Source: Escherichia phage SKA64 | Reading direction: 5' to 3' (one strand) | DNA: 64,000 nt | Sequence record: OM362897.1 | Shown: in pieces, positions 11,059 to 42,388 of the stretch | Layout of the letters: every line of letters begins with the position of its first letter | Position numbering within the stretch: the first letter of the stretch is position 1 | The notes under the pieces: model-generated | Databases searched by the model: none | Told to the model about the DNA's origin: nothing | What the model saw: the letters and a program-made list of their open reading frames with translations, nothing else | Position numbers and translations under genes: made by a program

Positions 11059-11071
11059 AGTTTCTCCTTTG

Positions 11072-28166: not shown

Positions 28167-28181
28167 GTGAGGAGATAAGTA

Positions 28182-28787
28182 ATGCAACATAGTGTAGTAG
28201 TCAACATGCCGAATAGTGGGGATAAATCTTTTGGTGTCCCTGCTAAAAAAGTGTGGAAAGCCCATTTTCATCTTACTTTATCTAACGTTAGTTCTGAAGA
28301 GTTGATGAAAGCAGCTAAGATTATTGGTGCCAAATGCACAACAATTGATTTACATCGGGATACAAAGTCTCAACGTGATCGTATGTTAACAAAGTATCAA
28401 AGCGATCTCGACACTACTTTAATGTTGCAGTGTGTAGAAAAACTTGAGAATGCAGGTTTCAATGTTGTTCGTTACAAACTGGAACGAATGTTTAAACATG
28501 TTGCCTGTGTTCTTTTCATGGATCTAAGTAAAGAAAATTACGGAGAAGTTCACATTAAGACTTCAGCAAGTGATCCCGAAGTAGAAACAAACTTCTTCCG
28601 TATTTCTTCTAATGCTGAAGAAATTGATTACCGATTTTATAATGCTCGCTTATATTCCGCAGAAGATAAGTTGCGTTTCAATGAAGCGTATGATATGCTC
28701 TTGAACAGTGGGATACAGATAAAAGGCTACCACATAGAACAAGTGGTAGTGGACAGTAATCTTAACTTAGACGCATGGTGGGCTTAA
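28182..28787 (+). CDS. hypothetical protein (201 aa)
   Basis: ORF track; GAGGAGA RBS; single HLTL motif, no confident family. Confidence 0.55.
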   Translation: MQHSVVVNMPNSGDKSFGVPAKKVWKAHFHLTLSNVSSEELMKAAKIIGAKCTTIDLHRDTKSQRDRMLTKYQSDLDTTLMLQCVEKLENAGFNVVRYKLERMFKHVACVLFMDLSKENYGEVHIKTSASDPEVETNFFRISSNAEEIDYRFYNARLYSAEDKLRFNEAYDMLLNSGIQIKGYHIEQVVVDSNLNLDAWWA

Positions 28788-28788
28788 T

Positions 28789-29445
28789 ATGACTATTAAA
28801 CATATCTCTTTTGATGTATGGAACACACTGATCACAGCAAACTCCAATTACGCAGACATGCGAGCCTGGACTATCGCAAAATATGGAGATATTACGGAAG
28901 TTGAAGCAAGAGCAGCTTATAAAAAGATCAAAAAGGAACTGGATAATGCAGCACTTCAAGGCAAAGCCGAGTGTGCAGCATACGCCTGGGAAAGACTTGG
29001 TTCTGAACTTGGGATAACGCCTTGGAAGTCTGCAAAGCTTCGTTTCGAGTGTGAACAGTGGTTCCTTAAGTTTCCACCACACGTAGCCGTAGATCTGCCG
29101 ATGTACTTGCTGTATCTTTCTGGGCGTTATGATTTGAGTATTAAGAGCAATACCAACTTCATATCAGGGGATATTCTGCGTCGTGCTTGTAAGTTTGATA
29201 GTTGGAATTGTTTTGAGTTCACCCATTTCTCGGATGAAGCTTTACTTTGTAAACCAGATCCGCGATTCTTTGCTCGCACGCTCACGTATTCTCCGATCCC
29301 TCTGTTAGGGCACGAAGTGTTGCACGTAGGCGATAGTGAAGAATATGATGGAAAATGTGTTGACTTAGGGTTTAACTTCTGTCATATTAAGAACCCTAAC
29401 GACTTACTAGAGAAACTTAAAAGAGGAGAAATTGTAAATGCGTAA
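28789..29445 (+). CDS. HAD-superfamily hydrolase-like protein
   Basis: motif I FDVWNTL (dehalogenase-type DxYGT-like), motif IV VGDSEEYDG. Confidence 0.55.
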   Translation: MTIKHISFDVWNTLITANSNYADMRAWTIAKYGDITEVEARAAYKKIKKELDNAALQGKAECAAYAWERLGSELGITPWKSAKLRFECEQWFLKFPPHVAVDLPMYLLYLSGRYDLSIKSNTNFISGDILRRACKFDSWNCFEFTHFSDEALLCKPDPRFFARTLTYSPIPLLGHEVLHVGDSEEYDGKCVDLGFNFCHIKNPNDLLEKLKRGEIVNA

Positions 29446-30265
29446 TCAAACTCAAATTTTTGCAAATAAATTTGATGACCTGGAAACTGCTACTTTTGAT
29501 ATCCAAGATTATTCAAAATTGAAATTTGGTAGTAACCAAGCTGCGCGTCGTATGGGTAAAGAATTGGCACTTCAGTTTTTTGCTCAAGTGGCAATGAAAC
29601 ATATTGGGGAACAATTTGTTATCATTCCTTCTCCTTACAACCATGTGCATAATGCTGCAACAATGATGACAGATCATTTTATTAATTACTTCAATATGTT
29701 GCAAGCACAATATGATCAAGGTCGTTCAGCAGAACTGGACATTATTCATCGTAAAGTTAGCTATATCAACGATTATGGTTTCTTGGATAAAGCTAGTCGT
29801 AAGAAACTTATTGATGGGGATACATTCTACTGTAACAAAGAATTCTGGGGTGATAAGAAGCTTGTGTTTATTGATGATGTAAATATCACTGGAACTCATG
29901 AAGACAAACTGATTGAGATCCTTGATGAAAATCAAGTTAAAAATGATGTTTACTTCTTGTATTTTGCAAAATACGAAGGTAATCAAGCAGATACCGAAGC
30001 TAAACTGAATTTTAATTATATTAATACACCAGAAGCGTTTGTTAAAATGATTAATGAAGAACGTGATGCACAGTGTCTTGTTCGTCCTATTAAGTATCTT
30101 ATGGGCCAAAATCACGAAGACTTCAAAATCATTCTTAGCCAATTACCACACTACTATGTAGAGCAACTTTTCTTCGGATGTTTGGGAGAAGGTTACAACC
30201 GAATTTCAAAGTATGCCGAAAACTTTGAATTCTTGGATCGTTACACAAAACAACACATTCTGTAA
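29438..30265 (+). CDS. phosphoribosyltransferase (type I PRTase fold)
   Basis: PRPP-binding motif KKLVFIDDVNITGT. Confidence 0.6.
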   Translation: MRNQTQIFANKFDDLETATFDIQDYSKLKFGSNQAARRMGKELALQFFAQVAMKHIGEQFVIIPSPYNHVHNAATMMTDHFINYFNMLQAQYDQGRSAELDIIHRKVSYINDYGFLDKASRKKLIDGDTFYCNKEFWGDKKLVFIDDVNITGTHEDKLIEILDENQVKNDVYFLYFAKYEGNQADTEAKLNFNYINTPEAFVKMINEERDAQCLVRPIKYLMGQNHEDFKIILSQLPHYYVEQLFFGCLGEGYNRISKYAENFEFLDRYTKQHIL

Positions 30266-30278
30266 TAAGGAGCTAAAA

Positions 30279-30752
30279 ATGCTTAAAATGAAAACAGGTA
30301 ATCTTATTGATGCCGCTAAAGCAGGTGAAGTAACTGTTATTGCTCATTGTTGCAATTGTATGTGTAATATGGGGGCAGGTATTGCCCCACAAATCAAACG
30401 AGCATTTCCTTACGCATATGCAGCAGACTTAGACACAATGGCTGGTGATCAAAGTAAACTAGGTTGTTTTAGTTTAGGGGTGCCAGACGAACAATCAGAT
30501 CCTTTGGTATATAATCTATACGGGCAGTATCGTTATGGATACAATGCTAAAGGTCGTCAGTTGGACTATGATGCACTTTACGATGCACTAATAGCTATGG
30601 CTAACGATTTGCTTCTCCGTGACCAAAAATGTAAGATCGGCTTACCTATGATTGGCGCTGGATATGCTGGAGGTAATTGGGCTATCATCCAAGTGATGAT
30701 TGAAGAAACTTTAGTAAAAACAGGTCACGATGTGACTATTTATAAACTTTAA
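30279..30752 (+). CDS. macro-domain protein (ADP-ribose binding/processing)
   Basis: start at ATG 30279 after TAAGGAG; N-terminal segment NLIDAAKAGEVTVIAHCCNCMCNMGAGIAPQI and C-terminal LPMIGAGYAGGNW resemble macro-domain signatures. Confidence 0.5.
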   Translation: MLKMKTGNLIDAAKAGEVTVIAHCCNCMCNMGAGIAPQIKRAFPYAYAADLDTMAGDQSKLGCFSLGVPDEQSDPLVYNLYGQYRYGYNAKGRQLDYDALYDALIAMANDLLLRDQKCKIGLPMIGAGYAGGNWAIIQVMIEETLVKTGHDVTIYKL

Positions 30753-30764
30753 GAGGAGATTAGT

Positions 30765-30986
30765 ATGGGTGTTTTTGCAGGTATTGTTGCAGTGGTAAGC
30801 TTTTTTGTTATTGCTTTTATGCTTAGTTTGATTCCAGCTTGGTTACTGTTGCTGGCTTACAACTATGTTGCTGAAGTTATGGGTCATGCAGATATCACTG
30901 TCCCAGTAACCTTCTGGACCGTGGTTTGTGTTTCGTTTATTCTGGCTGTATTACGAGGAATCTTTTCCTCTCATTCAACAAAATAA
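30765..30986 (+). CDS. small membrane protein (73 aa)
   Basis: ORF track; GAGGAGA RBS; two hydrophobic helices. Confidence 0.6.
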   Translation: MGVFAGIVAVVSFFVIAFMLSLIPAWLLLLAYNYVAEVMGHADITVPVTFWTVVCVSFILAVLRGIFSSHSTK

Positions 30987-30989
30987 GTG

Positions 30990-31017
30990 TTGACATAGTT
31001 CTTAAAAAGAGTAAGAT
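30990..31017 (+). promoter_or_regulatory. sigma70-like promoter
   Basis: TTGACA-N16-TAAGAT. Confidence 0.6.
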
Positions 31018-31029
31018 ATATCACATGAA

Positions 31030-31048
31030 GCGGGGAATAGTTCCCCGC
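31030..31048 (+). promoter_or_regulatory. PeSL-like 5' leader stem-loop (only plus-strand copy)
   Basis: GCGGGGAA-TAG-TTCCCCGC between promoter and AGAGGAGAAAAG RBS. Confidence 0.55.
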
Positions 31049-31065
31049 AAAGAGAGGAGAAAAGA

Positions 31066-32040
31066 ATGCAACTTGGTTTCCCCATTATTGATGTAGTTGT
31101 TTTAGTTGGTATTTTAGCATTGTCTATTGGTATCGATTTCTTTGGTCACAAAGAAAATAAAGAAATTTCATTCAAATCCGCAGTTGATTGGTCGATCTTT
31201 TGGATTGGTGTATCATTAGCTTATTATGGTTTTGTATACTTCCAACATGGTGCCGATTTTGCTAACTTGTTTTTAAGTGGATATGTGTTGGAAAAATCTT
31301 TGTCGGTAGATAACTTAGTAGTATTTGTAGCAGTATTCGCAAGTTTTGGTATTAAAAGCACACACTTGCAGCACAAGATTCTACTTTGGGGTATTGCAGG
31401 TGCGATTGTCTTCCGAGGTGTGTTTGTAGCAGTAGGCACTTACTTGTTAAGTTTGGGCTGGTATGTTAATATCTTCTTCGGTGCGGTCATCCTTTTCTGT
31501 GCAGCTAAAATGGTATTTGCTGGAGATAATGACGCAGAAGTTGATTACTCTAAACACTGGGCTACCCGTATTGTTCGTAAACTGTTCCCTGTATCTAATA
31601 AAATGGATGGGGAGAAGTTCTTCACAATCGAAAATGGTGTTCGTGTAGCAACTCCAGCTTTGGTTTGCGTATTCGTGATGGAAATGGTGGATGTAATCTT
31701 TGCAGTAGATTCGGTTCCAGCGGTGATCGCAGTGACACAAGAACCCCTACTTGTATTCTCTTCGATGTTATGTGCAATCTTAGGTCTACGTGCTCTGTTC
31801 TTTGTTCTTAGTGTCGCACTGAAGTATCTGGTTCACTTGGAGAAAGCAGTTATTGTGGTTCTGGTGTTTGTAGGCGTTAAACTGATGTATCACCCGTTTG
31901 CAGAAACATTGCATGAGAAAATGAGTTTCCTGCCAGCACATATTGATCCAACTATTAGTATGTATATCGTGCTTGGTACTTTGGCCCTTGGTGTTATTGC
32001 AAGCTTTATCTTCCCTGAAAAAGAAGAAGCTACTATTTAA
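31066..32040 (+). CDS. TerC/Alx-family integral membrane protein
   Basis: multi-pass membrane protein; LSGYVLEKSLSVDNLVVFVAVF and FGAVILFCAAKMVFAGD blocks resemble TerC/Alx family. Confidence 0.8.
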   Translation: MQLGFPIIDVVVLVGILALSIGIDFFGHKENKEISFKSAVDWSIFWIGVSLAYYGFVYFQHGADFANLFLSGYVLEKSLSVDNLVVFVAVFASFGIKSTHLQHKILLWGIAGAIVFRGVFVAVGTYLLSLGWYVNIFFGAVILFCAAKMVFAGDNDAEVDYSKHWATRIVRKLFPVSNKMDGEKFFTIENGVRVATPALVCVFVMEMVDVIFAVDSVPAVIAVTQEPLLVFSSMLCAILGLRALFFVLSVALKYLVHLEKAVIVVLVFVGVKLMYHPFAETLHEKMSFLPAHIDPTISMYIVLGTLALGVIASFIFPEKEEATI

Positions 32041-32045
32041 TAAAT

Positions 32046-32070
32046 GAGCCTCCTTCGGGAGGCTATTTTA
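32046..32070 (+). terminator. rho-independent terminator
   Basis: AGCCTCC-TTCG-GGAGGCT followed by ATTTTAT. Confidence 0.65.
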
Positions 32071-32082
32071 TAGGAGAGACTT

Positions 32083-32433
32083 ATGAGTAATTTTGATGAA
32101 ATTCAAGAACTTGTTTGGGATTTATCTGGTGATGTGGATTACATTTCAGATTATCTTTCAAAAGTTTACCCTGGGGTAAGCGTTATGATTGTGACCAAAG
32201 ATCCAATTAGTTTGCCTCCCAATGTTGTAGCTTGTTGTGGAAGTGGTTCAGGAGAAGTAGAGCCTGTATCTCGTTGGGAATTAACTAAAGCTGTTTCAAA
32301 ACGAAACGGTGAAGTTTTGAATATTGATATTGAGCAAATATGGACTTCTCCAGCAGCCAAATGGAATGATCCAAATGGTTGGGATTTGTTCTTCTGGGAT
32401 AATGAGACTGATGATGAGGTGTTTTTAAAATGA
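32083..32433 (+). CDS. hypothetical protein (116 aa)
   Basis: ORF track; AGGAGAGA RBS. Confidence 0.6.
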   Translation: MSNFDEIQELVWDLSGDVDYISDYLSKVYPGVSVMIVTKDPISLPPNVVACCGSGSGEVEPVSRWELTKAVSKRNGEVLNIDIEQIWTSPAAKWNDPNGWDLFFWDNETDDEVFLK

Positions 32434-32675
32434 AATACTTGTTGGTTGTGTTTGAAAATATCTGTTTTGCAATAGGGTTGTTTGTTGTAATTTTTGTATT
32501 GACAAGCGTAATCAACGGCAGTAAAGTGAGTTTATACCGAGATGGAGAGCAACTTTATTGCTTCTCTGGAGATTTCAAACACAGATGTATTAATAGCCAA
32601 AACGAGGAAAGCAAATATGAAAAAACTAGCCCTGATTTTAATTGGTTGTATCTTTTTAACAGCTTGCGAGGATGA
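32430..32675 (+). CDS. small membrane protein (81 aa), overlaps next gene
   Basis: ORF track; ATGA start overlap; hydrophobic N-terminus; 3' end overlaps lipoprotein gene by 59 nt. Confidence 0.35.
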   Translation: MKYLLVVFENICFAIGLFVVIFVLTSVINGSKVSLYRDGEQLYCFSGDFKHRCINSQNEESKYEKTSPDFNWLYLFNSLRG

Positions 32676-33054
32676 AACAAATCCTGCACAATACCAACAA
32701 CCTCCTCAACAATACGCTCAACAAGGATCTGACGGAGATACAACTATTATCAACAATGGTGGCGGTTCTAGTAGTAGCGGTGTTGGTGAGTTTGCTACAG
32801 GTATGTTGTTAGGGCATATGATGAGTGGCGGTAGTAATCGTAGCAGTGGGGATTATAACGATAACAGAACGATTATTAATAAGCATTATAATACACCTAA
32901 ACCGAAAACTAATTTTTATGGTAAGCCTAAACAAGAGATAAAAACTTATGAAAAGCCGAGACAAACTTTTAAAACAAATAGTAGCTATACAACTCGTAAA
33001 TCTTACAATAGCCCTTTAAGTAAAAAGAGTTCATCTCGTAGCAAGCGACGTTAA
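32617..33054 (+). CDS. lipoprotein with Gly/Ser-rich linker
   Basis: start ATG 32617 after GAGGAAAG; signal peptide plus lipobox LTAC; GGGSSSSG low-complexity segment. Confidence 0.6.
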   Translation: MKKLALILIGCIFLTACEDETNPAQYQQPPQQYAQQGSDGDTTIINNGGGSSSSGVGEFATGMLLGHMMSGGSNRSSGDYNDNRTIINKHYNTPKPKTNFYGKPKQEIKTYEKPRQTFKTNSSYTTRKSYNSPLSKKSSSRSKRR

Positions 33055-33068
33055 TAAGGAGAAAAACA

Positions 33069-33662
33069 ATGACAATTTCTATTCGTACTTCCATTACAGG
33101 TGTTAAAAGTTTGCCTAATGCTTTGCAAATCACACGTGCTTTGAGGGATACGTTCTCTGCTGTGGATGAGCATAAGATGCTCGATAATCTCTCAAATTGG
33201 CCCTATTTTCATTATTTTAAAAATGAAGACGACGAGTTTATAGACGCTGTTTCTTACGGTTATGATTTCGGTAAGGAGGTTTCCCCTGAAGAATTTGTAG
33301 CTACGGTGTTCCCAAACGGTTTGCCTACTCGCAGTAAACGTAAAAAAGGACCAAAAAACAAGAAACGTGCTACTAATAAAGCTACCATTTTCTTTACTGA
33401 TGGCACACAATATACGATTAAAGACTTTGAAGAGGTATCTTATACAGCAGGTGGGAGTCTTTCTTTCTACACCATCAAAAAACAAAACTATACGTTCAGC
33501 CATGTTTCTAACATGATTGAAATGTTAGTAGAAGATATTGAAAGCGTGGCTGTGTTAGGTATGCATAAAAGCTTTTTAATTACAAATATTTCAGATTTCA
33601 GTGCAAGTTTATCTGGCCCTGATTTTGAAGCCACGACCACGCATTTCGCTTTTAAGGTGTAA
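33069..33662 (+). CDS. hypothetical protein (197 aa)
   Basis: ORF track; TAAGGAGAAAA RBS. Confidence 0.6.
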   Translation: MTISIRTSITGVKSLPNALQITRALRDTFSAVDEHKMLDNLSNWPYFHYFKNEDDEFIDAVSYGYDFGKEVSPEEFVATVFPNGLPTRSKRKKGPKNKKRATNKATIFFTDGTQYTIKDFEEVSYTAGGSLSFYTIKKQNYTFSHVSNMIEMLVEDIESVAVLGMHKSFLITNISDFSASLSGPDFEATTTHFAFKV

Positions 33663-33665
33663 GTT

Positions 33666-34256
33666 ATGCATACCGAGAGAGACTTGCAACTCTTGTGGTG
33701 GGAAGTGATGCAGGAAATAAAAGAAGATTTTCCTGTTTACTACAACATGTTACGTGAAGCAGGATATAAAGCTTGTGTTAGAAACAAAGTGAATAACTCT
33801 TTCGGTTGGTGCAACTACCGAGATAAAATTGTTGTTGTAAATTGGCACTTGCATAAGAACTCCACAAGAGATATGATCGTGGATACAATGAAGCACGAAA
33901 TTGCTCATGCTATTGATGGTTGTATGGGTAAGTTTAGTAGGCACGGTGCTCATTGGCAAAAACTGGCAGCAGAATTAGGGGCTAATCCTAAAGCCACTTC
34001 CAAAGAGCCGTTGAACCACGAATATAAATATGTTCTTGTTCTGGTAGATAGGTTTGCGACAAGATGTGTTAGAGGTTATAATCGTAAACCTAATCGCATG
34101 TACCCAGGTAAGCAACCTAATATGTGGTTGAAATCAGATAAAGAAGGGACCGAAGGAAAATTATGGTTGTATAAATGGGACGATTGGGTTAAAGTAGCTA
34201 AAGAGTACGGTGTTTCACCATATATAAGAGATGCAGAAGAGGAGAATGAAGAATGA
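33666..34256 (+). CDS. SprT-like zinc metalloprotease domain protein
   Basis: HExxH motif in MKHEIAHAIDG followed by HGAHW. Confidence 0.5.
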   Translation: MHTERDLQLLWWEVMQEIKEDFPVYYNMLREAGYKACVRNKVNNSFGWCNYRDKIVVVNWHLHKNSTRDMIVDTMKHEIAHAIDGCMGKFSRHGAHWQKLAAELGANPKATSKEPLNHEYKYVLVLVDRFATRCVRGYNRKPNRMYPGKQPNMWLKSDKEGTEGKLWLYKWDDWVKVAKEYGVSPYIRDAEEENEE

Positions 34257-35365
34257 CAAGTCCATTTTTAAAAGCAGCTACTGGTGGTCAGAAGAAGCCT
34301 GAAATGAGCGTATTTGCTGCAACAACAGATGCAAGTAAATCTGTATTCGCTCCAAGCGTGTTAGATGCCAGTCCTGTTTATGCACCAGCGGCACCGCAAG
34401 AAGTTCCAGTTTTGCCTTCTATGACCCGACAAGAGATTGAAGAGATTGGGGCAGAGGCAGGAACAACCTTGCGTTCCTTGAATGCCGAGGTGTTAAAACA
34501 TCAACGTAGTAATCAAGGCGATCAGATGAGTGAACGACTCACAGCTTTGATTAAACAGGCAAAACAACTTGATCCAAACTCTATTAAACAAAGCAAGGGT
34601 ATTACTAAACTCATTAAAAAAGTTATGGGTATGAAAGAAGACCTGTTCGGGGAGTTTGATAATGTTAATAACCGTATTGAAGAGTTGGTAAAGAACCTTC
34701 AAATGGATATTCGCAAAGAAGAAGATTCCTTGGTATATCTTGAAAAGCTACATCAAGCTATTGGACAATATGCTGCAAGTTTGAACCGAGATATGCAGCT
34801 TCTAACAGCAACCTATGAAAAAGAAGAACAAGCTTTGGCTGCTCTTCCAGAAGATGCAGTAGAACAGCGACAAGTGATCCGAGATACTTTGGATCTTCTG
34901 GAGATTCGTATTGCAGATTTAAAAGCATTGCGCCTACTGTGTGTCCAAATGGGACCGCGTGTACAAGGTATGCAAAAAGTTTCTGCAAGCTTAATGCGAT
35001 CTGCGCGTAACATAGTAAATAATGTTATTCCTGCTTACTCTGCTAACTTCTCAATGTATATCGAGAGCTTACGTCAAATGAAAGCAGCAGAGACGCAGAA
35101 TAACGTTCTTGATGAATTTAACCTGGCAATTAAACTGGGTAGCGATCTTGCCACACAGAATCAGATCGAAGCAGCAGCACTGGCTAACCGTCAAGTGTTG
35201 GATATTGAAACTCTGCGTCACGATCAGGAAAACTTGGTTAAGATGCTGGAAGAAACTAACCGCATCAATACGGAAGCCCGTGCTGCTCGTGTTGATTATA
35301 TTAATGAAGTTCAATCTCTGGAAGACGGGATGGTAGCTGCTGTGAAACGAGGGCTTGGTAAATGA
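34253..35365 (+). CDS. coiled-coil protein, TelA-like candidate
   Basis: 370 aa, largely helical with heptad-like repeats; assignment is contextual (sits in Ter-type cluster). Confidence 0.3.
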   Translation: MTSPFLKAATGGQKKPEMSVFAATTDASKSVFAPSVLDASPVYAPAAPQEVPVLPSMTRQEIEEIGAEAGTTLRSLNAEVLKHQRSNQGDQMSERLTALIKQAKQLDPNSIKQSKGITKLIKKVMGMKEDLFGEFDNVNNRIEELVKNLQMDIRKEEDSLVYLEKLHQAIGQYAASLNRDMQLLTATYEKEEQALAALPEDAVEQRQVIRDTLDLLEIRIADLKALRLLCVQMGPRVQGMQKVSASLMRSARNIVNNVIPAYSANFSMYIESLRQMKAAETQNNVLDEFNLAIKLGSDLATQNQIEAAALANRQVLDIETLRHDQENLVKMLEETNRINTEARAARVDYINEVQSLEDGMVAAVKRGLGK

Positions 35366-35559
35366 GAATCCGTATCTATATAATTGATGAAGACATTGGT
35401 GTCCGTTATGATGACGAAAAACGATTCGCACCGATGGGAGGCATATATCCCCCAAGTGTTCTAGCAGTTTGTCGTGATTGTTATATTTATGAAGGTTGTC
35501 GTAACTTCCGTAAATTCGAACTCCTTGCAGATATTGACTTCAATGAGGAGGAGGAGTAA
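35362..35559 (+). CDS. hypothetical protein (65 aa)
   Basis: ORF track; overlapping start/stop. Confidence 0.5.
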   Translation: MRIRIYIIDEDIGVRYDDEKRFAPMGGIYPPSVLAVCRDCYIYEGCRNFRKFELLADIDFNEEEE

Positions 35560-35732
35560 TGAAAATATTACGAGTGAATATTGAAACTGCTTGGTGTGGA
35601 TGCAATGAGGTTGTGGATATCGAAATTGAAGATGATATGTCTCAAGAGGATATAGAAGATCTTGCACACGAAACCTTTCAGGATTATTGTAATTACGGGT
35701 TCCATATTTTAGAGGAGGAAGAAGATGTATAA
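35559..35732 (+). CDS. hypothetical protein (57 aa)
   Basis: hand-translated; GGAGGAGGAG RBS; start overlaps upstream stop, and stop overlaps the next start. Confidence 0.4.
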   Translation: MKILRVNIETAWCGCNEVVDIEIEDDMSQEDIEDLAHETFQDYCNYGFHILEEEEDV

Positions 35733-36123
35733 TCCAACAGGTATTCTTTTAAAACTTACAGTAACAGACCCTACTCTTTTCATCAAGTTAGCAAGTGGTG
35801 AAGTTTATGAAGTAATGAAAGATGATGACGGTTGGTGTTATCTTTGTGGCTACTTCCTCTGTGATGCAGAAGAGTTAGAATCCATTGTAACTAAAGGTTT
35901 TTATGAAGAACCAGGGTTCCGTGTGGAAACTACGCAGAAACCTGATACCATTACGTTGACTCGACAGGAACTGATCACAATCATTGAAGATGCTTTTATT
36001 GATGGCTGGAATACACAAGATAATGACTGGGGTGGACCCGAAGCTTTTCTGGAACATCATAAAGCTTATGGAGAATTTTGTGAAACCACTGTAGCTCTTG
36101 ATAATCTGAAGGAGGGTTTGTAA
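35725..36123 (+). CDS. hypothetical protein (132 aa)
   Basis: ORF track; GAGGAGGAAGAAG RBS. Confidence 0.6.
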   Translation: MYNPTGILLKLTVTDPTLFIKLASGEVYEVMKDDDGWCYLCGYFLCDAEELESIVTKGFYEEPGFRVETTQKPDTITLTRQELITIIEDAFIDGWNTQDNDWGGPEAFLEHHKAYGEFCETTVALDNLKEGL

Positions 36124-36686
36124 TGGGTTGTTTTAGCTTTTTGTGCAAAGAATCGGGCAAAGCTGCCCTTTCTACTTCTTTCGACGGATCACCTTGCTAC
36201 CTCTTTCTTTTGAAGGACGGTGTTGTTATTGAAGAGATGTATGGCAACTATGATAGTTATGGTTGTGTTTTCTCTGGAAAGGAGGATGAAAATGGTGTTC
36301 GTGAACGATTTGAATGGGCTATGGATTGGAGTAAGGTTTGTGATTTGATGCATTCCTCAAATCCAAGAGACGGTATCGCTATGGTGCTGGAAGAGTACTT
36401 TACAGGTGAAATCCCTACAGAACAATCTGACGGAGATCCTAACCAAGGTTGGGGTGATGGTGAAGAAGATCCAGATTGTTTTTTCAGCACAGAAAAGAAT
36501 AAGTTTAAACGTGTTGACAACCCTTATCACAAAGTGCATAATACTCTCATTGAAACAGAAGATGACAAGATGGAAATTGAAGAAGATGATCCTCTTGTAA
36601 CACTTCCTATAAGTGAGTTACAAAAGATCACTAAGGAAGCTTACGATTTGGGCTTCAAAATTGGTAGAGGAGGTATGCGTGTTTAG
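36123..36686 (+). CDS. hypothetical acidic protein (187 aa)
   Basis: ORF track; GGAGGG RBS. Confidence 0.6.
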   Translation: MGCFSFLCKESGKAALSTSFDGSPCYLFLLKDGVVIEEMYGNYDSYGCVFSGKEDENGVRERFEWAMDWSKVCDLMHSSNPRDGIAMVLEEYFTGEIPTEQSDGDPNQGWGDGEEDPDCFFSTEKNKFKRVDNPYHKVHNTLIETEDDKMEIEEDDPLVTLPISELQKITKEAYDLGFKIGRGGMRV

Positions 36687-36957
36687 ATTCAATATTCAAG
36701 AAGAAAAAAGTCAAGATTTACCTATTGCTTTCGAAGATCTTGACGTAGGGGCAACATTCATGTATTATGATGCCTATGAAGACGCAGGGTTGGATACGTA
36801 CCGTAACTTGGTGTTCATTAAAAATTCCACAAACAGTGCGATTTGTATTAATGGATCACTAGCACAACGAGGCTATACTCATTGCATCCCACCAGATACA
36901 AATATGGTGGAAGTAGATTTAGAAGTTACCAATATTACACTTAAGAAGGAGAAATAA
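36679..36957 (+). CDS. small protein, paralog 1 (92 aa)
   Basis: GTG start after AGAGGAGG; paralog of 37979..38248 (DLDVG.TF.Y...). Confidence 0.5.
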   Translation: MFRFNIQEEKSQDLPIAFEDLDVGATFMYYDAYEDAGLDTYRNLVFIKNSTNSAICINGSLAQRGYTHCIPPDTNMVEVDLEVTNITLKKEK

Positions 36958-36958
36958 T

Positions 36959-37753
36959 ATGTCCGAGAAAATCAGCCTGAAAAAACGTCAAGAAAACCTT
37001 GCTTTCTCTCTGAAAAAGAATAAGAACCTGAATGAAGGTAAGATTGTTCTTCGTGTAGCATGTGCTCTAGATATTTCTGGTAGTATGCATGGTCTATATT
37101 CTAGTGGGGTAGTGAGTGATTTTGTAGGTAAACTGCTTCCTTTTGGTATGTTGTTCGACGATAATCAACAAATTGATATGTGGGCCTTCAATACGAGTTC
37201 CCAAGAGCTTACTCCAGCAACAGCAGACGTTTACGACGACTATGTTGGTAAATGTATGCGTAATGTTCGTATCGGAGGTGGAACAAATTACGCCCCTGTA
37301 ATGGCAGATATCTACGATGAGTATTTTGGCACTGTTACCAAATATATTACCACTAAACAAGTGGTACAAGAGGAGGCTCCAAAGAAAGGCTTCTTTAATC
37401 GTCTGCTTGGTAAAACTGAAACAGTGTCTGTAGAGCGTGAAAAAGTTGTAGCTGTATCAGAACCAGGTGCTGACGTTACCCCTGGTGTTGTATTCTTCCA
37501 GACGGATGGTGAGAATGGTGATCCTAGTGCTGTTCGTCGTCTTATCGAAGAGAATAAGAATAAACCTATTTATTGGTTCATGGTTGGCGTTGGTAATGAG
37601 AAGTTTGGCTTCCTGAAAGAACTGGCAAATGCTTATGATAATGTTGGTTTTATTGGCATTAAAGATTTAGACTTGACAGATTCAGAGCTTTATGACAAAC
37701 TCTTATCTGAAGAGTTCGGAGAGTGGGTTGTTAAAGTAGGTGCTAAAAAATGA
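36959..37753 (+). CDS. von Willebrand factor A domain protein (TerY-like)
   Basis: MIDAS motif DISGSM; N-terminal ISLKK/FSLKK repeat shared with TerD gene. Confidence 0.7.
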   Translation: MSEKISLKKRQENLAFSLKKNKNLNEGKIVLRVACALDISGSMHGLYSSGVVSDFVGKLLPFGMLFDDNQQIDMWAFNTSSQELTPATADVYDDYVGKCMRNVRIGGGTNYAPVMADIYDEYFGTVTKYITTKQVVQEEAPKKGFFNRLLGKTETVSVEREKVVAVSEPGADVTPGVVFFQTDGENGDPSAVRRLIEENKNKPIYWFMVGVGNEKFGFLKELANAYDNVGFIGIKDLDLTDSELYDKLLSEEFGEWVVKVGAKK

Positions 37754-37998
37754 TCGACGAGCTTGCCTCTCAAGTCATAGAAAATTATTGGCGCGAGAGA
37801 GAAGCTTTCATTATGCGCAGTCTCAAAGAGTATTTCATTGGGACTGTGCGAATGGAAGATATTGTAAGTAGAGTGGAGATTCATGTATGGCCCGATTATG
37901 AAGAATGGGTTGACAAAGAAAATGAAAATGCTATAATTCTTCGTATATACAAACCGGAGATAACATTAGGAGGAAGAAGTGTTAAACTTCGAAATTGA
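37750..37998 (+). CDS. hypothetical protein (82 aa)
   Basis: ORF track. Confidence 0.55.
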   Translation: MIDELASQVIENYWREREAFIMRSLKEYFIGTVRMEDIVSRVEIHVWPDYEEWVDKENENAIILRIYKPEITLGGRSVKLRN

Positions 37999-38248
37999 TG
38001 AGCAAAAAGTAAATAAACGATGCCTTACCATTAAAGATTTGGATGTAGGAGATACTTTCGTCTATGAAAATGCATTTGACGAAAATGGTTTAGACCTTAG
38101 TGAAATCATTGTTTATTTAAAAGTAGATGATGGGGAAAATGATTATTCTGCTGTAGAACTAAACCATCATGCACAATTAGTATCAATCCAAAGCACATCT
38201 AAGCTTTTGGAAGTAGAATTGACTGTAACTGGTATTACACTTAAATAA
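37979..38248 (+). CDS. small protein, paralog 2 (89 aa)
   Basis: GTG start after GGAGGAAGAA. Confidence 0.5.
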   Translation: MLNFEIDEQKVNKRCLTIKDLDVGDTFVYENAFDENGLDLSEIIVYLKVDDGENDYSAVELNHHAQLVSIQSTSKLLEVELTVTGITLK

Positions 38249-38263
38249 TAGAGGAGACAAAAG

Positions 38264-38866
38264 ATGACTGATAAAATTTCCCTGAAAAAAGGCTCTAGCG
38301 AAAAAATTTCCCTGAAGAAGGTTGCTCCGGCTCTGAAAGAACTGCGCCTGGAATTCTCTTGGAAGTCTGATTCTAAACTGGATCTGGATGTAAGTGCACT
38401 GGTTTGTCGTCACAATGCCGCTGGCAATCCTGAAATGCTGTCTGCACGTCATCTTGTTTGCTATGCTAACAAGTTTGATCCTGAACGTTCTACCTTCGCT
38501 GGTGACGATGTTCGTGATGGCACTGGCAGCATGGAGCAGATCGATATTACTCTGGCTAAAATCTCTCCTGATGCACAAGAGATTGCCTTTGTTCTGACCA
38601 TTGATGATGATACAGGTCTGAAACGTTTTGGTCATGCTTCTGAAGGTATGCTTAAAATCTTCGACTCCGAGCGCAATGTGGAAATTCTGGATTTTGACTT
38701 CCTGGCTCCTGAAGTAGCTGGCAACACAATCTGCCACGTGGCTTCCTTGGTTCGTGAAGATGGGGAATGGAAGCTGAAAGCATATGGTGTAGGCAAAGCT
38801 GGTCTGGATATTTGTGATGTGGTGATGGCCTTCGGTGGTAAAAAAGAATGGTATGAATGTCCATAA
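38264..38866 (+). CDS. TerD-domain protein
   Basis: ISLKKGSSEKISLKK...LDLDVSALVC N-terminus and GEWKLKAYGVGKAGL C-terminus resemble TerD family. Confidence 0.8.
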   Translation: MTDKISLKKGSSEKISLKKVAPALKELRLEFSWKSDSKLDLDVSALVCRHNAAGNPEMLSARHLVCYANKFDPERSTFAGDDVRDGTGSMEQIDITLAKISPDAQEIAFVLTIDDDTGLKRFGHASEGMLKIFDSERNVEILDFDFLAPEVAGNTICHVASLVREDGEWKLKAYGVGKAGLDICDVVMAFGGKKEWYECP

Positions 38867-38885
38867 TAATTAACAAATGATTTTG

Positions 38886-38912
38886 AGGGGGAGAAATCCC
38901 CCTCTTGCAATA
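38886..38912 (+). terminator. rho-independent terminator candidate
   Basis: GAGGGGG-AGAAAT-CCCCCTC then TTGCAAT. Confidence 0.5.
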
Positions 38913-38933
38913 AAGCCTCTATCGTGTTATACT
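38905..38933 (+). promoter_or_regulatory. sigma70-like promoter
   Basis: TTGCAA-N17-TATACT ahead of lysin gene. Confidence 0.55.
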
Positions 38934-38965
38934 AGAAATTCGTTAACTTAAAAAGGAGGCAAAAT

Positions 38966-39487
38966 TTGCTGATAAAAAACTTTGTAACAGTTGCGTTACT
39001 ATCCTTAACTGCTTTTACATTTACACCTGTTGTGGCGAAAGCCGAAGCTGCAAACGTAAAAACCGCTAAAGTAGTTCACAAATGTACAAAGCAATATAAT
39101 GATAAAATTCTATTAGCTTGTGCAATTTACGCAGAAGGTCGCGGTCTGGGTAAAAAAGGAATGAATGCCGTTGGGAATGTGGTAATCAACAGAAGAAATG
39201 ATACCTACTTCCCTAACACAGTCAGAGGGGTCTTGTTCCAGAAAGGGCAATTCTCATATGCGAAAACTTTTAACGTAACAGAGAAAGATAAGTGGCAGGA
39301 AGCAAAAGCAATAGCGGAGCGTTTACTTTATTTAGAGAAACATTTTCCTGAATTGCGGTCTGTTTTAGATGTTACTAAAGGTGCTCTATACTTCAAGAAA
39401 CGGAATATAAGGACACACTGGGAACGTGATATGCGTCTTGTTTATCGAGATAAAGTGCATGGTTTCTATCTACCAAAGGGGAGTTAA
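38966..39487 (+). CDS. SleB-like cell-wall hydrolase with N-terminal signal/anchor (endolysin candidate)
   Basis: TTG start after AAAGGAGG; hydrophobic N-terminus; AIYAEGRGLGKKGMNAVGNVVINR and VLFQKGQFS resemble SleB-type hydrolase. Confidence 0.65.
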   Translation: MLIKNFVTVALLSLTAFTFTPVVAKAEAANVKTAKVVHKCTKQYNDKILLACAIYAEGRGLGKKGMNAVGNVVINRRNDTYFPNTVRGVLFQKGQFSYAKTFNVTEKDKWQEAKAIAERLLYLEKHFPELRSVLDVTKGALYFKKRNIRTHWERDMRLVYRDKVHGFYLPKGS

Positions 39488-39488
39488 A

Positions 39489-39773
39489 ATGCAAGAAGAT
39501 AATACTGTTGTTGTAGCAAGTTACCTGGTTGTCGGTCTTACTGAAGAGGATGTATACTACACCCGTAAGCATTTAGAAGCATACGCTACTTTGTTTATGG
39601 AAGATGAAAAGGATGTAGATAAATATAGCATTGACATGATCAACGACAGTATTTATCCTTGTATGGTTCTTAAAGTAGATGCTGTGTTGTGGGAGCGTTT
39701 TGCAAGGACTCATGATGCTGTAGAATGCTCCGCAGTAATGTCTCAAAACAACATTTTAGGGGAGATTCATTGA
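39489..39773 (+). CDS. hypothetical protein (94 aa)
   Basis: ATG at 39489 after GGGGAG; C-terminal part of track ORF 39426..39773. Confidence 0.5.
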   Translation: MQEDNTVVVASYLVVGLTEEDVYYTRKHLEAYATLFMEDEKDVDKYSIDMINDSIYPCMVLKVDAVLWERFARTHDAVECSAVMSQNNILGEIH

Positions 39774-40003
39774 TGGGAGAAGTCATTGAAGTCAATTTTC
39801 GCACTAAACAGAAAGTGCAAAAATATGTCGTTATTAAAAACATTTGCGTTGTCTGCTTCAATACAGTAATATACGACTCACGACGCGGAGAAAACGAAAA
39901 TGAACCTTACATTGAAATTTCTAAGAACAAAGGTCAATGTATTTGTAAGAACTGTGCAGTAGCTATTAAGGAGGTTGTAAATGAAAACGCTTGGGACCAA
40001 TGA
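39773..40003 (+). CDS. Zn-ribbon protein (76 aa)
   Basis: ATG at 39773 (TGATG overlap); CVVCF...CKNC. Confidence 0.5.
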   Translation: MGEVIEVNFRTKQKVQKYVVIKNICVVCFNTVIYDSRRGENENEPYIEISKNKGQCICKNCAVAIKEVVNENAWDQ

Positions 40004-40188: not shown

Positions 40189-40752
40189 ATGATTTATTAT
40201 ATTACTCCCTATCTGACAGGAAATATCGGCAAGGCTATCAATGAAGCCATTGCCGTTCTTCCAGATGATAGTTGGGTGTGTTTAAGAGATACCGATACAA
40301 TGTTCCTCCTACCTGATCAACCATCTATGCTTGAAGAGCTTGTTATGTCAAACCCGCCTTTTGATGTAATAGGTGCAACTTGTAACAGGTTAGGTAGTGG
40401 TTATCAGCTTTTCTCTAACCAAATTAACGATGATCCCGATATTCTAAACCATATAGAATATGCTAAGATTGCAAGAGAATATCATAAAGTGAGTGTTGAA
40501 GAAGTTCCTTTCGGAACACCTCTGGCAGGTTTCTTTTTGCTTTTTAGAAAATCATTGTGGAATGAAATTCCTTTCGAAGAAAAATCTATCCAATTCGACT
40601 TAATTTTCTCTCGCACTTTACATGAAAAAGGAAAGAGGTTAGGATTGATGCGGGGAATGTATCTGTTTCACATTTACAGATTAGGTCAAACAAATCCTCA
40701 ACGGTCTATACATCATTTATTACACTGTCATGATCACAGTAAAACTATTTAG
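40189..40752 (+). CDS. putative glycosyltransferase-like protein
   Basis: ORF track; GGAGGGGAGA RBS; LRDTDTMF possible DxD-like motif; weak. Confidence 0.35.
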   Translation: MIYYITPYLTGNIGKAINEAIAVLPDDSWVCLRDTDTMFLLPDQPSMLEELVMSNPPFDVIGATCNRLGSGYQLFSNQINDDPDILNHIEYAKIAREYHKVSVEEVPFGTPLAGFFLLFRKSLWNEIPFEEKSIQFDLIFSRTLHEKGKRLGLMRGMYLFHIYRLGQTNPQRSIHHLLHCHDHSKTI

Positions 40753-40760
40753 GAGAGAAA

Positions 40761-41444
40761 ATGGAAAATATTAAAATCGGAGTGGGTGTTATCACTGTAG
40801 GTGTCCGTCCACTTAAAGACTACCTTGTAACAGATCCACGTGCAGATTTTCGAGTATTCAACGATCCAGATCGTAAAGGTGTAGCTTATGCCAGGAATGA
40901 ACTTATGCACCAGTTTTATGAAGAAGGTTATGATTATTGGTTTATTTTTGACGATGATTGCTACCCAGTCATGGAGGGATGGGAAACATACTTTGTAGAT
41001 CAAGCTGTCTCTGGAGGATGGGATTTCTTTGGTATGCCGGAGTATTTCAAAGATAAAGTTGTTGGAAGCAAAGGAGAAGTTATTCTCTGGGAACTTGCAA
41101 TGTGTCAATTTGCAATGTATTCTCGTGCCGTTGTTGAGAAGATGGGTTATTTCCGTCCTTACACTCACGGTTATGGTTTTGAAGATGCTGAATGGGGACA
41201 CCGTTTGCAAGCTGCTGGTTTGAATCATGGTATTCAGGCAACACCTTGTCCACTTCGTATCATGGCTTATATCCACCCAGACGATGTTTTTGGAAACAAT
41301 CCTATGCCTTTTGCTAACCTGACAAAAGAAGAGAAAGAGGCTGCTATTGGGATTAACTGGGAAGAATATAAAGCATCTTTAGAGGATATTAAAAATGGGA
41401 AAATCCGAATTTCCTATGAGGAGGCACTAGCACATGTCAAATAA
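40761..41444 (+). CDS. family-2-like glycosyltransferase (GT-A fold)
   Basis: GVAYARNELMHQF, DxD-type FIFDDDCYP, GYGFEDAEWGHRL. Confidence 0.55.
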   Translation: MENIKIGVGVITVGVRPLKDYLVTDPRADFRVFNDPDRKGVAYARNELMHQFYEEGYDYWFIFDDDCYPVMEGWETYFVDQAVSGGWDFFGMPEYFKDKVVGSKGEVILWELAMCQFAMYSRAVVEKMGYFRPYTHGYGFEDAEWGHRLQAAGLNHGIQATPCPLRIMAYIHPDDVFGNNPMPFANLTKEEKEAAIGINWEEYKASLEDIKNGKIRISYEEALAHVK

Positions 41445-42381: not shown

Positions 42382-42388
42382 GTGAAGT

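Follow-up and report, generated by a model that had tools for sequence, protein, structure and literature searches.

A conserved gene module of a Phapecoctavirus myovirus, most likely a phage-adapted and shortened form of the bacterial Ter system

INTRODUCTION

The Bacillus subtilis yceCDEFGH locus combines TerD paralogs, TerC/MeeF, YceG, and TelA/YceH. TerC/MeeF of this species metalates secreted enzymes (PMC10550928), and five acidic residues of Escherichia coli Alx are required for Mn2+ export (PMC10197570). The terZABCDEF loci (IncHI2 R478, E. coli O157, Klebsiella) are linked to tellurite, colicin, and phage resistance (PMC8386662, PMC12054061); ter loci of bacteria act against both phages and colicins, and deletion of terC in Klebsiella pneumoniae results in larger plaques and in Zn/Mn sensitivity (PMC12054061). 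A 2021 review by Iyer, Anantharaman, Krishnan, Burroughs, and Aravind dealt with the Ter systems of phages, PRTase and HAD genes included; it surveyed Acinetobacter phage ME3, Caulobacter jumbo phages, and some related smaller tailed phages and proposed superinfection exclusion as a hypothesis (PMC7824862). A Ter cluster was also described for the Klebsiella phage phiKp34 (vB_KpM_FBKp34; DNA Res 2021, PMC8386662). The Ter genes of the phage group studied here are thus not new, being already described and also annotated, as the GenBank records of phi92 and of the phAPEC8 group name them.

RESULTS AND DISCUSSION

Content and limits of the module

The window, i.e., the whole stretch of 64,000 nucleotides analyzed here (Escherichia phage SKA64, OM362897.1), shares 99.2% identity with Escherichia phage tuntematon (Phapecoctavirus) and belongs to a phAPEC8-like Phapecoctavirus myovirus of the Stephanstirmvirinae, which we take to be virulent. 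The original prediction had placed a Ter-type cluster of a lytic phage at 31066-38866. Its coordinates and gene calls were correct, and profile searches with Pfam and NCBIfam at curated cut-offs found such a cluster in this myovirus. The boundary was nevertheless too short, as the same strand carries HAD-like, PRTase_3, and macro-domain genes immediately before it. With the HAD-like/PRTase_3 pair included, the module extends over 28789-38866 (+ strand), surrounded by replication and nucleotide-metabolism genes. The features are as follows.

28789..29445, + strand: HAD-fold hydrolase-like protein (Pfam Hydrolase, weak, 4e-4; NCBIfam HAD-IA subfamilies)
29438..30265, + strand: PRTase_3, ComF-like type I phosphoribosyltransferase (Pfam PF15610, 7.7e-42)
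30279..30752, + strand: macro-domain protein, DarG macro-like (Pfam Macro 8.9e-5; PADLOC DarG 4e-10; NCBIfam DarG 1e-8)
30765..30986, + strand: small hydrophobic (membrane) protein, 73 aa (ORF and sequence; phrog_16065)
30990..31017, + strand: predicted sigma-70-like promoter before TerC, TTGACA-16-TAAGAT (consensus match)
31066..32040, + strand: TerC, Alx-subfamily multi-pass membrane protein (Pfam TerC 1e-38, 133 bits; cut-off 27.8)
32047..32064, + strand: terminator-like GC-rich hairpin and T-tract directly 3' of the TerC stop (AGCCTCCTTCGGGAGGCT ATTTTAT)
32083..32433, + strand: 116-aa protein following TerC (phrog_27498)
32430..32675, + strand: 81-aa protein with an N-terminal transmembrane helix (sequence; 49%-identical homolog in phi92)
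32617..33054, + strand: lipoprotein (translation; phrog_21570/32479)
33069..33662, + strand: 197-aa protein upstream of TelA (phrog_27550; partial homolog phi92 gp179)
33666..34256, + strand: SprT-like zinc metallopeptidase, HEIAH motif (Pfam SprT-like 4e-9)
34253..35365, + strand: TelA, toxic anion resistance family (Pfam TelA 3.2e-33, 115.7 bits; cut-off 30)
36123..36686, + strand: 187-aa acidic protein (phrog_14928; 76% identical to phi92 gp175)
36514..36542, + strand: predicted sigma-70-like promoter before paralog a and the vWA gene, TTGACA-17-CATAAT, 11/12 (consensus match)
36679..36957, + strand: small paralog a, 92 aa, GTG start, immediately 5' of the vWA gene (phrog_11278)
36959..37753, + strand: stand-alone TerF-type vWA protein (Pfam vWA-TerF-like 1.6e-37, 130 bits; cut-off 29.4)
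37910..37937, + strand: predicted promoter before paralog b and TerD, perfect sigma-70 consensus with extended -10, TTGACA-16-TGcTATAAT (consensus match)
37979..38248, + strand: small paralog b, 89 aa, GTG start, immediately 5' of TerD (phrog_11278)
38264..38866, + strand: TerD-domain protein (Pfam TerD 3.2e-28, 98.9 bits; cut-off 25.3)
38966..39487, + strand: SleB-type cell-wall hydrolase (phage endolysin) with an N-terminal signal/anchor (Pfam Hydrolase_2 1.9e-17)

The scores listed for TerC, TerD, and the vWA protein confirm these three predicted identities, and that of TelA exceeds its curated cut-off, so that this call no longer rests only on context. The module thus holds an Alx-type TerC, TelA, a TerF-type vWA protein, one TerD, and an overlapping HAD-like/PRTase_3 pair (the HAD-like stop overlaps the PRTase_3 start), with lineage-specific small proteins, two small membrane proteins, and one lipoprotein scattered among the Ter genes. 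The most likely reading of the region is that of a phage-adapted, shortened form of the bacterial Ter stress/defence system.

Comparison with described systems

Among the closest described systems, that of phiKp34 is from the same subfamily and comprises TerC (69% identical to the present one), a TerF-type vWA protein, TerD, TelA with a SleB-type hydrolase next to it, and a HAD-like/ComF-like PRTase pair, but in its own order (TerC..vWA-TerD-TerD-x-TelA-SleB....HAD-PRTase), with two TerD genes instead of one and, by annotation, without the phrog_11278 pair. The phage systems of the 2021 review (PMC7824862) share the components (PRTase, HAD, TerD, TerC, TerF vWA, TelA) and the proposed role in competition with superinfecting phages, whereas the present module has a single PRTase and no detected TerB; the survey features jumbo phages, while the present phage is a 150-kb, non-jumbo phage of E. 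coli. TerC and a TerD-domain protein are shared with terZABCDEF, from which the module differs in the absence of TerB and of the TerA/Z/E/F paralog series (a single TerD, with no further Ter paralog in the window), in the addition of TelA and a stand-alone vWA protein, in the Alx-subfamily TerC, and in predicted promoters of phage early type. As in the B. subtilis yce locus, TerD, TerC, and TelA lie in one transcription block, although yce lacks vWA and PRTase/HAD genes and has three TerD paralogs. The TerY-P triad (TerY vWA, PP2C phosphatase, Ser/Thr kinase) likewise associates a vWA protein with Ter genes. However, the label "TerY-like" originally given to the vWA protein was rejected, as this protein is of the TerF C-terminal type (PF10138), with no TerY-P kinase/phosphatase partner found and no PADLOC match; its score against the generic Pfam VWA family was under the cut-off.

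Proposed function and the metal-handling alternative

We propose, with about even confidence, that the Ter module forms an early inner-membrane complex altering the envelope and divalent-cation state and thereby shielding the infected cell against competing phages and stress. TerC would enter the inner membrane, and TelA, the vWA protein, and TerD would come together below it in a metal-dependent complex, fed or regulated by a ribosylated small molecule that the PRTase/HAD pair would make or process. The resulting change in envelope and cation state could protect the cell until lysis against superinfecting phages, colicin-like agents, and ionic or oxidative stress. The membrane or metal remodelling or superinfection exclusion initially suggested appears a reasonable role and equals the published phage-Ter hypothesis (PMC7824862). 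Counting against our proposal, the literature search found no experiment on any phage-borne Ter set, the PADLOC defence models matched none of the four Ter proteins, and fold searches with TelA returned generic helical bundles only, its AF2 model (pLDDT 74.6) being all-helical, as foreseen for this 370-aa protein.

The phage TerC passes the NCBIfam Alx cut-off (TIGR03718, 318.9 bits versus 246.4) and shares 34% identity with E. coli Alx, of which it retains all five acidic residues (E86/D92/E213/D216/D222), making it a candidate Mn2+/divalent-cation exporter. Unlike alx, it is encoded alongside TelA, vWA, and TerD, with its own predicted sigma-70-like promoter and terminator, and the yybP-ykoY Mn2+ riboswitch leader was not found for it. 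The module might then mainly handle divalent cations for the phage itself, with exclusion as no more than a by-product: TerC/Alx would serve to export Mn2+ or to metalate secreted phage proteins, e.g., the SleB-type endolysin or the lipoprotein, and TerD and the vWA protein would act as cytoplasmic Ca2+/Mg2+ binders. The conserved export residues agree with this, as does the capacity of bacterial TerC proteins to export Mn and metalate exoenzymes (PMC10197570, PMC10550928). Moreover, the secreted hydrolase adjoins Ter genes in three arrangements (here, in phiKp34, and in the 143-kb contig L010), and TerC occurs in Cronobacter, Vibrio, Proteus, Pectobacterium, and Aeromonas phages, for which the TelA search gave no matches, an observation which counts against the proposed complex. 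We still consider metal handling unlikely to be the main role, since it leaves unexplained the joint retention of TelA, vWA, TerD, and PRTase/HAD across rearrangements, and both the missing riboswitch and the putative nature of the metal dependence of the endolysin speak against it.

The HAD-like/PRTase_3 pair

PRTase_3 carries the PRPP-loop motif VFIDDVNITGTHE and an additional C-terminal helical domain. Its AF2 model is confident (pLDDT 92.6, pTM 0.89) and agrees with type I PRTases, the closest PDB folds being HGPRT/HGXPRT, ComF, and PyrR (E about 1e-6). In the HAD-like protein, motifs I-IV are conserved across 8 phage lineages; motif I (SFDVWNTL, D-V-W invariant there) keeps the nucleophile Asp, but Asp+2 is replaced by Trp, and the loss of this second catalytic aspartate, the general acid/base, suggests that it may not be an ordinary phosphatase, which counts against our proposal.

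Also weighing against it, phages of Rhizobium, Xanthomonas, and Caulobacter have the pair with no Ter genes in its vicinity. HAD/PRTase_3 and the macro-domain protein could thus form an unrelated module for nucleotide/NAD/ADP-ribose metabolism or anti-defence, with only TerC, TelA, vWA, and TerD cooperating. Such separation is seen in CcrColossus, XaC1, the T4-like contig L008, and the Rhizobium phages, where genes for DHFR, NMN adenylyltransferase/Nudix, RNA ligase, and tRNA nucleotidyltransferase adjoin the pair; a gap of several genes parts it from the Ter genes in phiKp34 and L010, and the macro domain resembles the DarG antitoxin. On balance, we find this division rather doubtful: in the 197-kb contig L011, TerC and TerD directly flank the pair, all of the about 131 subfamily genomes keep the pair together with the Ter genes, and PRTase and HAD enzymes were described as components of bacterial Ter systems (PMC7824862). 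Membership of the macro-domain gene in the Ter set is uncertain; phi92 gp185 is likewise a Macro protein (2e-7) in the same place 3' of the PRTase gene.

Integrity of the components and conservation of the set

The MIDAS motif predicted for the vWA protein, a metal-binding site, is intact, its five residues (D38/S40/S42/T109/D183) being invariant in five phage lineages. TerD matches the solved TerD structures 2KXT (Klebsiella, 1.5e-15) and 3IBZ (2.9e-14), yet its Ca2+-binding loop has lost three acidic residues relative to the Klebsiella protein, a further point against the proposed complex.

Phages often carry homologs of host immunity components. The phage copies might accordingly be decoys or inhibitors of the host Ter system, or of another envelope-linked abortive-infection response, without forming a working complex; the partly degenerate TerD loop and the antitoxin-like neighbors, i.e., the DarG-like macro domain and a 201-aa protein matching the PADLOC "AbiEi" models, are in line with this. 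We judge it improbable, given that the TerC, vWA, and PRTase catalytic or binding residues are intact and conserved and that a whole multigene set is kept rather than one mimic. In addition, phages of this group plate on E. coli K-12 according to the host fields of their records, and to our knowledge this strain has no ter operon.

At 60% identity or more, TelA, PRTase_3, and TerC were found in 131, 131, and 132 phage records, respectively, against 133 for the subfamily-type DNA polymerase used as a yardstick. The Ter set is thus core, being found in essentially every Stephanstirmvirinae genome. Compared with phAPEC8, HAD, PRTase, vWA, TerD, and TelA together differ by 56 synonymous and 4 nonsynonymous changes (HAD, 10 and 0; vWA, 13 and 2; TerD, 12 and 0; TelA, 5 synonymous at 100% amino acid identity), a pattern indicating purifying selection. 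The Ter families are found together but reordered in phiKp34, L010, L011 (TelA-vWA..TerC-HAD-PRTase-TerD), and phiPsa347, and we count this repeated clustering in varied orders, including in unrelated large phages, as functional linkage in favor of a Ter complex.

Database names such as "tellurite resistance" could suggest a recent host-derived "moron" conferring tellurite resistance on the bacterium. This is very improbable, because the set is core to the subfamily, in a phage presumed virulent, and its proteins group in clades made up of phage sequences alone; among bacterial TerC proteins, the nearest (~50% identical) are from Pasteurellaceae and Moraxella, not E. coli, and searches with TelA and PRTase_3 gave no match with a bacterial name and none on a contig larger than ~350 kb.

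Accessory genes, cassette exchange, and predicted promoters

The 116-aa protein has a 43%-identical homolog also 3' of TerC in the distant contig L010. A lipoprotein had been predicted, and its signal peptide and lipobox MKKLALILIGCIFLTA/C (LTA/C) are real, but its start was corrected to 32617; its gene is overlapped by that of the 81-aa protein, its mature part is long, of low complexity, and Q/S/G/K-rich, and phi92 gp180, with an annotated signal peptide, is 36% identical. The SprT-like gene is probably outside the core because no counterpart was detected in phi92, while the 187-aa acidic protein is kept between TelA and vWA in both genera (phAPEC8-type and phi92); Pfam searches gave no match for it or for the 197-aa protein. 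The paralogy announced for small genes of the block is real but concerns exactly one pair, a and b (34% identical, E 2e-13), of a tiny family confined to this phage lineage.

The TerC allele is of phi92 type (94.8% amino acid identity to phi92, 72.8% to phAPEC8), and the TerC cassette is exchanged between genera. The gene of the 73-aa membrane protein, directly 5' of TerC, lies within the recombinant patch (81.5% nucleotide identity to phAPEC8, with flanks at 98-99%).

Transcription of the module by host RNA polymerase would occur early in infection, in agreement with its promoters and with its setting among replication and nucleotide-metabolism genes. The promoters, predicted as consensus matches and compared across three phages, stand 5' of TerC, of the vWA unit, and of the TerD unit, and their placement is shared between genera. 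The first site is annotated as "putative host dependent promoter" in phAPEC8 (JX561091) and has a positional equivalent in phi92, and the hexamers of the second recur unchanged at the corresponding place in phAPEC8 and phi92. The third lies inside an 82-aa ORF, with the same 12/12 site in phAPEC8.

Composition of the Ter module

The Ter module of Escherichia phage SKA64 spans positions 28789 to 38866 of the window on the plus strand. The original prediction had proposed a phage-borne Ter-type block at 31066-38866; every gene that it named is present at the coordinates it gave, and TerC, TelA, vWA, and TerD each score above the curated cutoff of their profile. The Ter genes do lie in that block, but its limits were too short, as HAD, PRTase_3, and macro-domain genes lie directly upstream on the same strand.

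Genes of the Ter module and the paralogous small genes
28789-29445, plus strand: HAD-fold protein, its stop overlapping the PRTase_3 start
29438-30265, plus strand: PRTase_3, ComF-like phosphoribosyltransferase (E 7.7e-42, 143.9 bits)
30279-30752, plus strand: macro-domain protein, next after PRTase_3
31066-32040, plus strand: TerC
34253-35365, plus strand: TelA
36679-36957, plus strand: small paralog a, upstream of vWA
36959-37753, plus strand: vWA protein
37979-38248, plus strand: small paralog b, upstream of TerD
38264-38866, plus strand: TerD

TerC matches Pfam PF03741 (133.3 bits, over the curated cutoff) and the Alx subfamily model NCBIfam TIGR03718 (318.9 bits; cutoff, 246.4), with the YkoY and YjbE models falling under their cutoffs. 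It shares 34% identity with E. coli Alx, and when three phage TerC alleles are aligned with this Alx, E86, D92, E213, D216, and D222 (Alx numbering) are invariant; mutation of any of these residues in Alx abolishes Mn2+ export (PMC10197570). These matches place TerC in the TerC/Alx Mn2+ exporter subfamily and make it a candidate Mn2+ exporter. A scan of the whole window at Rfam gathering thresholds gave neither a yybP-ykoY Mn2+ riboswitch nor any other Rfam family. Metal handling in the service of phage enzymes, as the function of the whole module, appears rather unlikely to us.

TelA matches PF05816 with 115.7 bits (cutoff, 30) over profile positions 13-327 of 332, and its fold searches returned nothing usable. 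The vWA protein had been called TerY-like; since it matches PF10138 (vWA-TerF-like, 130.1 bits), the family found at the C terminus of TerF, and falls under the cutoff of the generic VWA model PF00092, it should be read as TerF-like. Its MIDAS residues D38, S40, and S42 (DxSxS), T109, and D183 are invariant across five divergent phage lineages. TerD matches PF02342 (98.9 bits; cutoff, 25.3) and the solved TerD structures 2KXT (E 1.5e-15) and 3IBZ (E 2.9e-14); PDB sequences contained no relatives of TelA, the TerF-type vWA, or PRTase_3. The TerD metal loop reads GDD-VRDGTGSME versus GDNRTGEGDGDDE in Klebsiella TerD (2KXT type). Compared with the reference acidic Ca2+-binding loop GDNxTGEGDGDDE, the phage protein retains the DLD motif, G88, and E91, and T, S, and M occupy three acidic positions, so that the loop is, on alignment, conserved in part only. 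TerD is single, with no further Ter paralogs in the 64-kb window, and PADLOC defense models matched none of TerC, TelA, vWA, TerD, PRTase, and HAD.

The HAD/PRTase_3 pair

Pfam support for the HAD-like protein is weak, yet motifs I to IV align. Motif I, SFDVW(N/K)TL, occurs in all eight phage lineages compared, namely, the window, L002 (phi92) to L005 (Xanthomonas phage XaC1), L008 (a T4-like contig), the 143-kb metagenomic contig L010, and the 197-kb contig L011. The nucleophile Asp and motifs II to IV are kept, and the Asp+2 position of the general acid/base is an invariant Trp; with this second catalytic Asp replaced, the protein may not be a conventional phosphatase. The PRTase_3 structure model (pLDDT 92.6, pTM 0.89) has a type I PRTase core, for which the matches are 6-oxopurine PRTases, ComF of H. 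pylori, and PyrR (E ~1e-6, 11 to 16% identity), and carries an additional helical domain at the C terminus; these core matches point to no particular substrate.

In a published survey of Ter systems, PRTase and HAD enzymes make up a branch termed "signal biosynthesis" (PMC7824862), and a linked PRTase and HAD, as in this nucleoside-like metabolite branch, is what the window contains. In L011 the pair directly adjoins TerC and TerD. The same pair also stands with no Ter genes close by in phages of Caulobacter, Xanthomonas, and Rhizobium, as well as in the T4-like contig, which favors a HAD/PRTase unit, with or without the macro-domain gene, functionally apart from the Ter genes; we consider such a separation possible but doubtful.

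In the T4-like contig (9345-12562) and in XaC1 (8333-11527), with no Ter genes within the flanks fetched, the gene next after HAD/PRTase_3 encodes a 530-amino-acid DUF2828/DUF7788 protein. This family may be vWA related; if so, HAD, PRTase, and vWA genes form a trio that is found repeatedly away from Ter clusters. The macro-domain protein is similar to the corresponding domain of the antitoxin DarG (PADLOC, 4e-10; NCBIfam, 1e-8); its gene also follows the PRTase gene directly in phi92 and is found in phiPsa347. It is a candidate for anti-DarT counterdefense (DNA ADP-ribosylation) or for a part of the PRTase/HAD pathway.

Transcription units and the TerC cassette

Putative transcription signals
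30990-31017, plus strand: sigma-70-like promoter of TerC, annotated as host dependent in phAPEC8
32047-32064, plus strand: terminator hairpin directly past the TerC stop
36514-36542, plus strand: sigma-70 promoter (11/12) before paralog a
37910-37937, plus strand: sigma-70 promoter (12/12, extended -10) before paralog b, inside an 82-amino-acid open reading frame (ORF) (37750-37998)

The sites at 36514 and 37910 are two of the top three plus-strand consensus promoter matches between 25000 and 42000. As each precedes a small paralog, each also precedes a Ter gene, giving two alike units of promoter, small paralog, and either vWA or TerD. Both sites are also found in phAPEC8, and in phi92 promoter-like sites lie ahead of the paralog-vWA unit and of TerD. 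Sigma-70-like promoters at the TerC, vWA, and TerD units, identified as consensus matches, argue for early transcription of the Ter genes by the host polymerase.

The "small paralogous genes" of the original prediction are truly paralogous and amount to a single pair (34% identical, E 2e-13, both phrog_11278), no other internal paralogs being found in the window. Both start with GTG after strong ribosome-binding sites. The family is tiny and restricted to this lineage: a profile of the pair searched against 1.84 billion representatives returned 18 matches, 13 of them small proteins of 54 to 93 amino acids and the other five long proteins matched over short stretches only, partly by a repeated short motif. 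This search found no fusion to any Ter domain, and thus no functional clue. Lenient Pfam scans of both paralogs and of the 116-, 132-, 187-, 197-, and 82-amino-acid proteins gave nothing credible. The lipoprotein of the block exists and has a lipobox (MKKLALILIGCIFLTA before C), with its start corrected to 32617.

With its own promoter and terminator, the TerC cassette (30750-32040) is a recombinant patch. Its TerC is 94.8% identical in amino acids (~88% in nucleotides) to that of the phi92 group (Justusliebigvirus) versus 72.8% to phAPEC8 TerC, and the flanking genes are 97 to 100% identical to those of phAPEC8 versus 35 to 81% for phi92. Eight phage records carry the window's allele at at least 99% identity, and those listed are phAPEC8-like phages. 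The nearest bacterial TerC proteins, Alx of Pasteurellaceae and Moraxella, are ~50% identical.

Conservation, linkage, and origin

A subfamily-type DNA polymerase occurs in 133 phage records; at the same threshold of at least 60% identity, TelA and PRTase_3 each occur in 131 records and TerC in 132, which gives the set core status. Synonymous/nonsynonymous changes relative to phAPEC8 number 10/0 for HAD, 16/2 for PRTase, 13/2 for vWA, 12/0 for TerD, and 5/0 for TelA, a pattern indicating that the Ter genes are under purifying selection. The linkage of the Ter families outlasts rearrangement: the order is TerC..vWA-TerD-TerD-x-TelA-hydrolase....HAD-PRTase in Klebsiella phage phiKp34 and L010, TelA-vWA....TerC-HAD-PRTase-TerD in the unrelated 197-kb L011, and TelA-x-vWA-TerC-TerD in Pseudomonas phage phiPsa347.

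The phage Ter proteins form clades of phage members only, and the PRTase_3 and TelA searches gave no bacterial-named match and none on a contig longer than ~350 kb. Together with the distant bacterial TerC, these clades indicate that the set has long been owned by phages and is not a fresh acquisition from E. coli; recent capture from an E. coli host is ruled out on the same grounds. That the module is a host-derived moron conferring tellurite resistance thus seems extremely improbable.

Relation to known Ter systems

A full bacterial Ter system has TerB, ATP-grasp, and TIM-barrel components, none of which had a Pfam match among the ORFs tested in 20543-43333; the phage set is a shortened form of that system. 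The set does not belong to the terZABCDEF operon type, in which TerZ/A/D/E/F paralogs and TerB surround TerC, since it has a single TerD and lacks TerB. Nor does it belong to the TerY-P triad (TerY vWA, PP2C phosphatase, and Ser/Thr kinase), the phage vWA being TerF type and the tested ORFs of the Ter block giving no Pfam match to a kinase or phosphatase. Its composition agrees with the abbreviated Ter system of phages (PMC7824862).

Existing annotations already point to this family: "putative membrane bound tellurium resistance protein," "putative stress / toxic anion resistance protein," and "putative stress protein" in phi92; "integral membrane protein TerC" in phAPEC8; and "TelA-like protein," "VWA domain-containing protein," "general stress protein 16U," and "putative orotate phosphoribosyltransferase" in newer records. 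A cluster of terC, terF-type vWA, two terD, and telA with a possible antiviral function was reported in phiKp34 (PMC8386662), which like the window phage belongs to the Stephanstirmvirinae and has the same families, HAD and PRTase included. PhiPsa374 is another published case, and a 2021 jumbo-phage survey described Ter components and a superinfection hypothesis (PMC7824862). The phage Ter set was thus already known, and the existence of the cluster is in itself no discovery; in the literature, we found no experimental test of Ter genes in any phage.

Proposed role of the module

Ter systems occur widely, in bacteria, on plasmids, and in large phages, and since the 1990s they have been tied to resistance against tellurite, colicins, and phages. 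The compact Ter set described here belongs to the core genes of an entire subfamily and is under purifying selection, and its carriers are virulent phages plating on E. coli K-12, thus offering a practical genetic handle on Ter mechanism. We propose, with about even confidence, that an early-installed Ter complex changes the envelope and cation state and so protects the infected cell. This model joins the observed identities, conservation, linkage, and promoter motifs by steps borrowed from bacterial Ter systems. The phage would place TerC in the inner membrane early in infection, and TelA, vWA, and TerD would form a metal-dependent complex under it, supplied or regulated by the PRTase/HAD product. 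With its envelope and cation state altered, the infected cell would then be shielded against superinfecting phages, colicins, and stress. The phage Ter set is hence a candidate superinfection-exclusion system, of relevance to phage cocktails.

Bacterial ter loci inhibit phages, and in K. pneumoniae deletion of terC enlarges plaques and renders the cells sensitive to Zn/Mn (PMC12054061). Phage Ter copies could conversely act as decoys in counterdefense, which we regard as improbable. A more specific form of the envelope-protection model sees a self-sufficient early envelope-protection or superinfection-exclusion machine that needs a ribosylated small molecule from HAD(D-x-W)/PRTase_3, read by TerD or vWA; this form is speculative, and we judge it unlikely. 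If it were true, inter-genus swaps of the TerC cassette would be a sign of selection acting on the membrane component that arriving phages or colicins encounter. We know of no ter operon in E. coli K-12, so that a module active in this host would then be the cleanest available system for Ter mechanism.

Genomic setting and minor observations

Positions 28000-40000 are 99.2% identical over their full length (12 kb) to Escherichia phage tuntematon and 96 to 99% identical to dozens of phAPEC8-like myoviruses (Phapecoctavirus, Stephanstirmvirinae). The Ter genes sit in a long plus-strand block, preceded by a UvrD-type helicase and the anaerobic ribonucleotide reductase NrdD with its activase and followed by a cell wall hydrolase, four glycosyltransferase-like genes, primase/helicase, methyltransferase, and DNA polymerase I. 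Genes for replication and host takeover occupy this part of the phage genome. GC skew changes sign at ~16 kb and ~52 kb, in agreement with the coding-strand switches at the limits of the long plus-strand early/middle block.

In the window, the UvrD-type helicase (21800-23392) has 530 amino acids, and NrdD (25680-27494, 604 amino acids) is uninterrupted. The phi92 annotation has a 924-amino-acid helicase "with 2 discontinuous domains" and a spliced NrdD assembled from two segments, so that intervening elements differ between the two genera. A 472-amino-acid ORF (24161-25579), named "ribonucleotide reductase" in related records through its PHROG, had no Pfam or NCBIfam match. The 201-amino-acid protein at 28182-28787 (phrog_22504) aligns with almost the entire length of two "AbiEi" antitoxin models of PADLOC (E 5e-13) and could be a phage-borne antitoxin mimic; it had no match in Pfam, NCBIfam, or PDB sequences and no counterpart in phi92. 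A 2H phosphoesterase, hinted at by HLTL/HIKT motifs, received no support from Pfam.

Matches to the window's Ter genes include records with odd hosts, namely, Campylobacter phages B15, A110a, C3, and A145, Acinetobacter phage vB_AbaM_ABPW7, Pseudomonas phage PsgM04F, and Klebsiella phage ZCKP1. Their identities to the window proteins vary from gene to gene, between 64 to 78% (phi92 type) and at least 99%; these levels are typical of E. coli Phapecoctavirus/Justusliebigvirus, and the host labels thus look doubtful. The four successive glycosyltransferase-like genes (40189-43333), which come just after the Ter block and the endolysin gene, have weak Pfam matches, one of them a borderline match to TET-associated glycosyltransferase and two of GT-B type, and their targets could be phage DNA or the host envelope.
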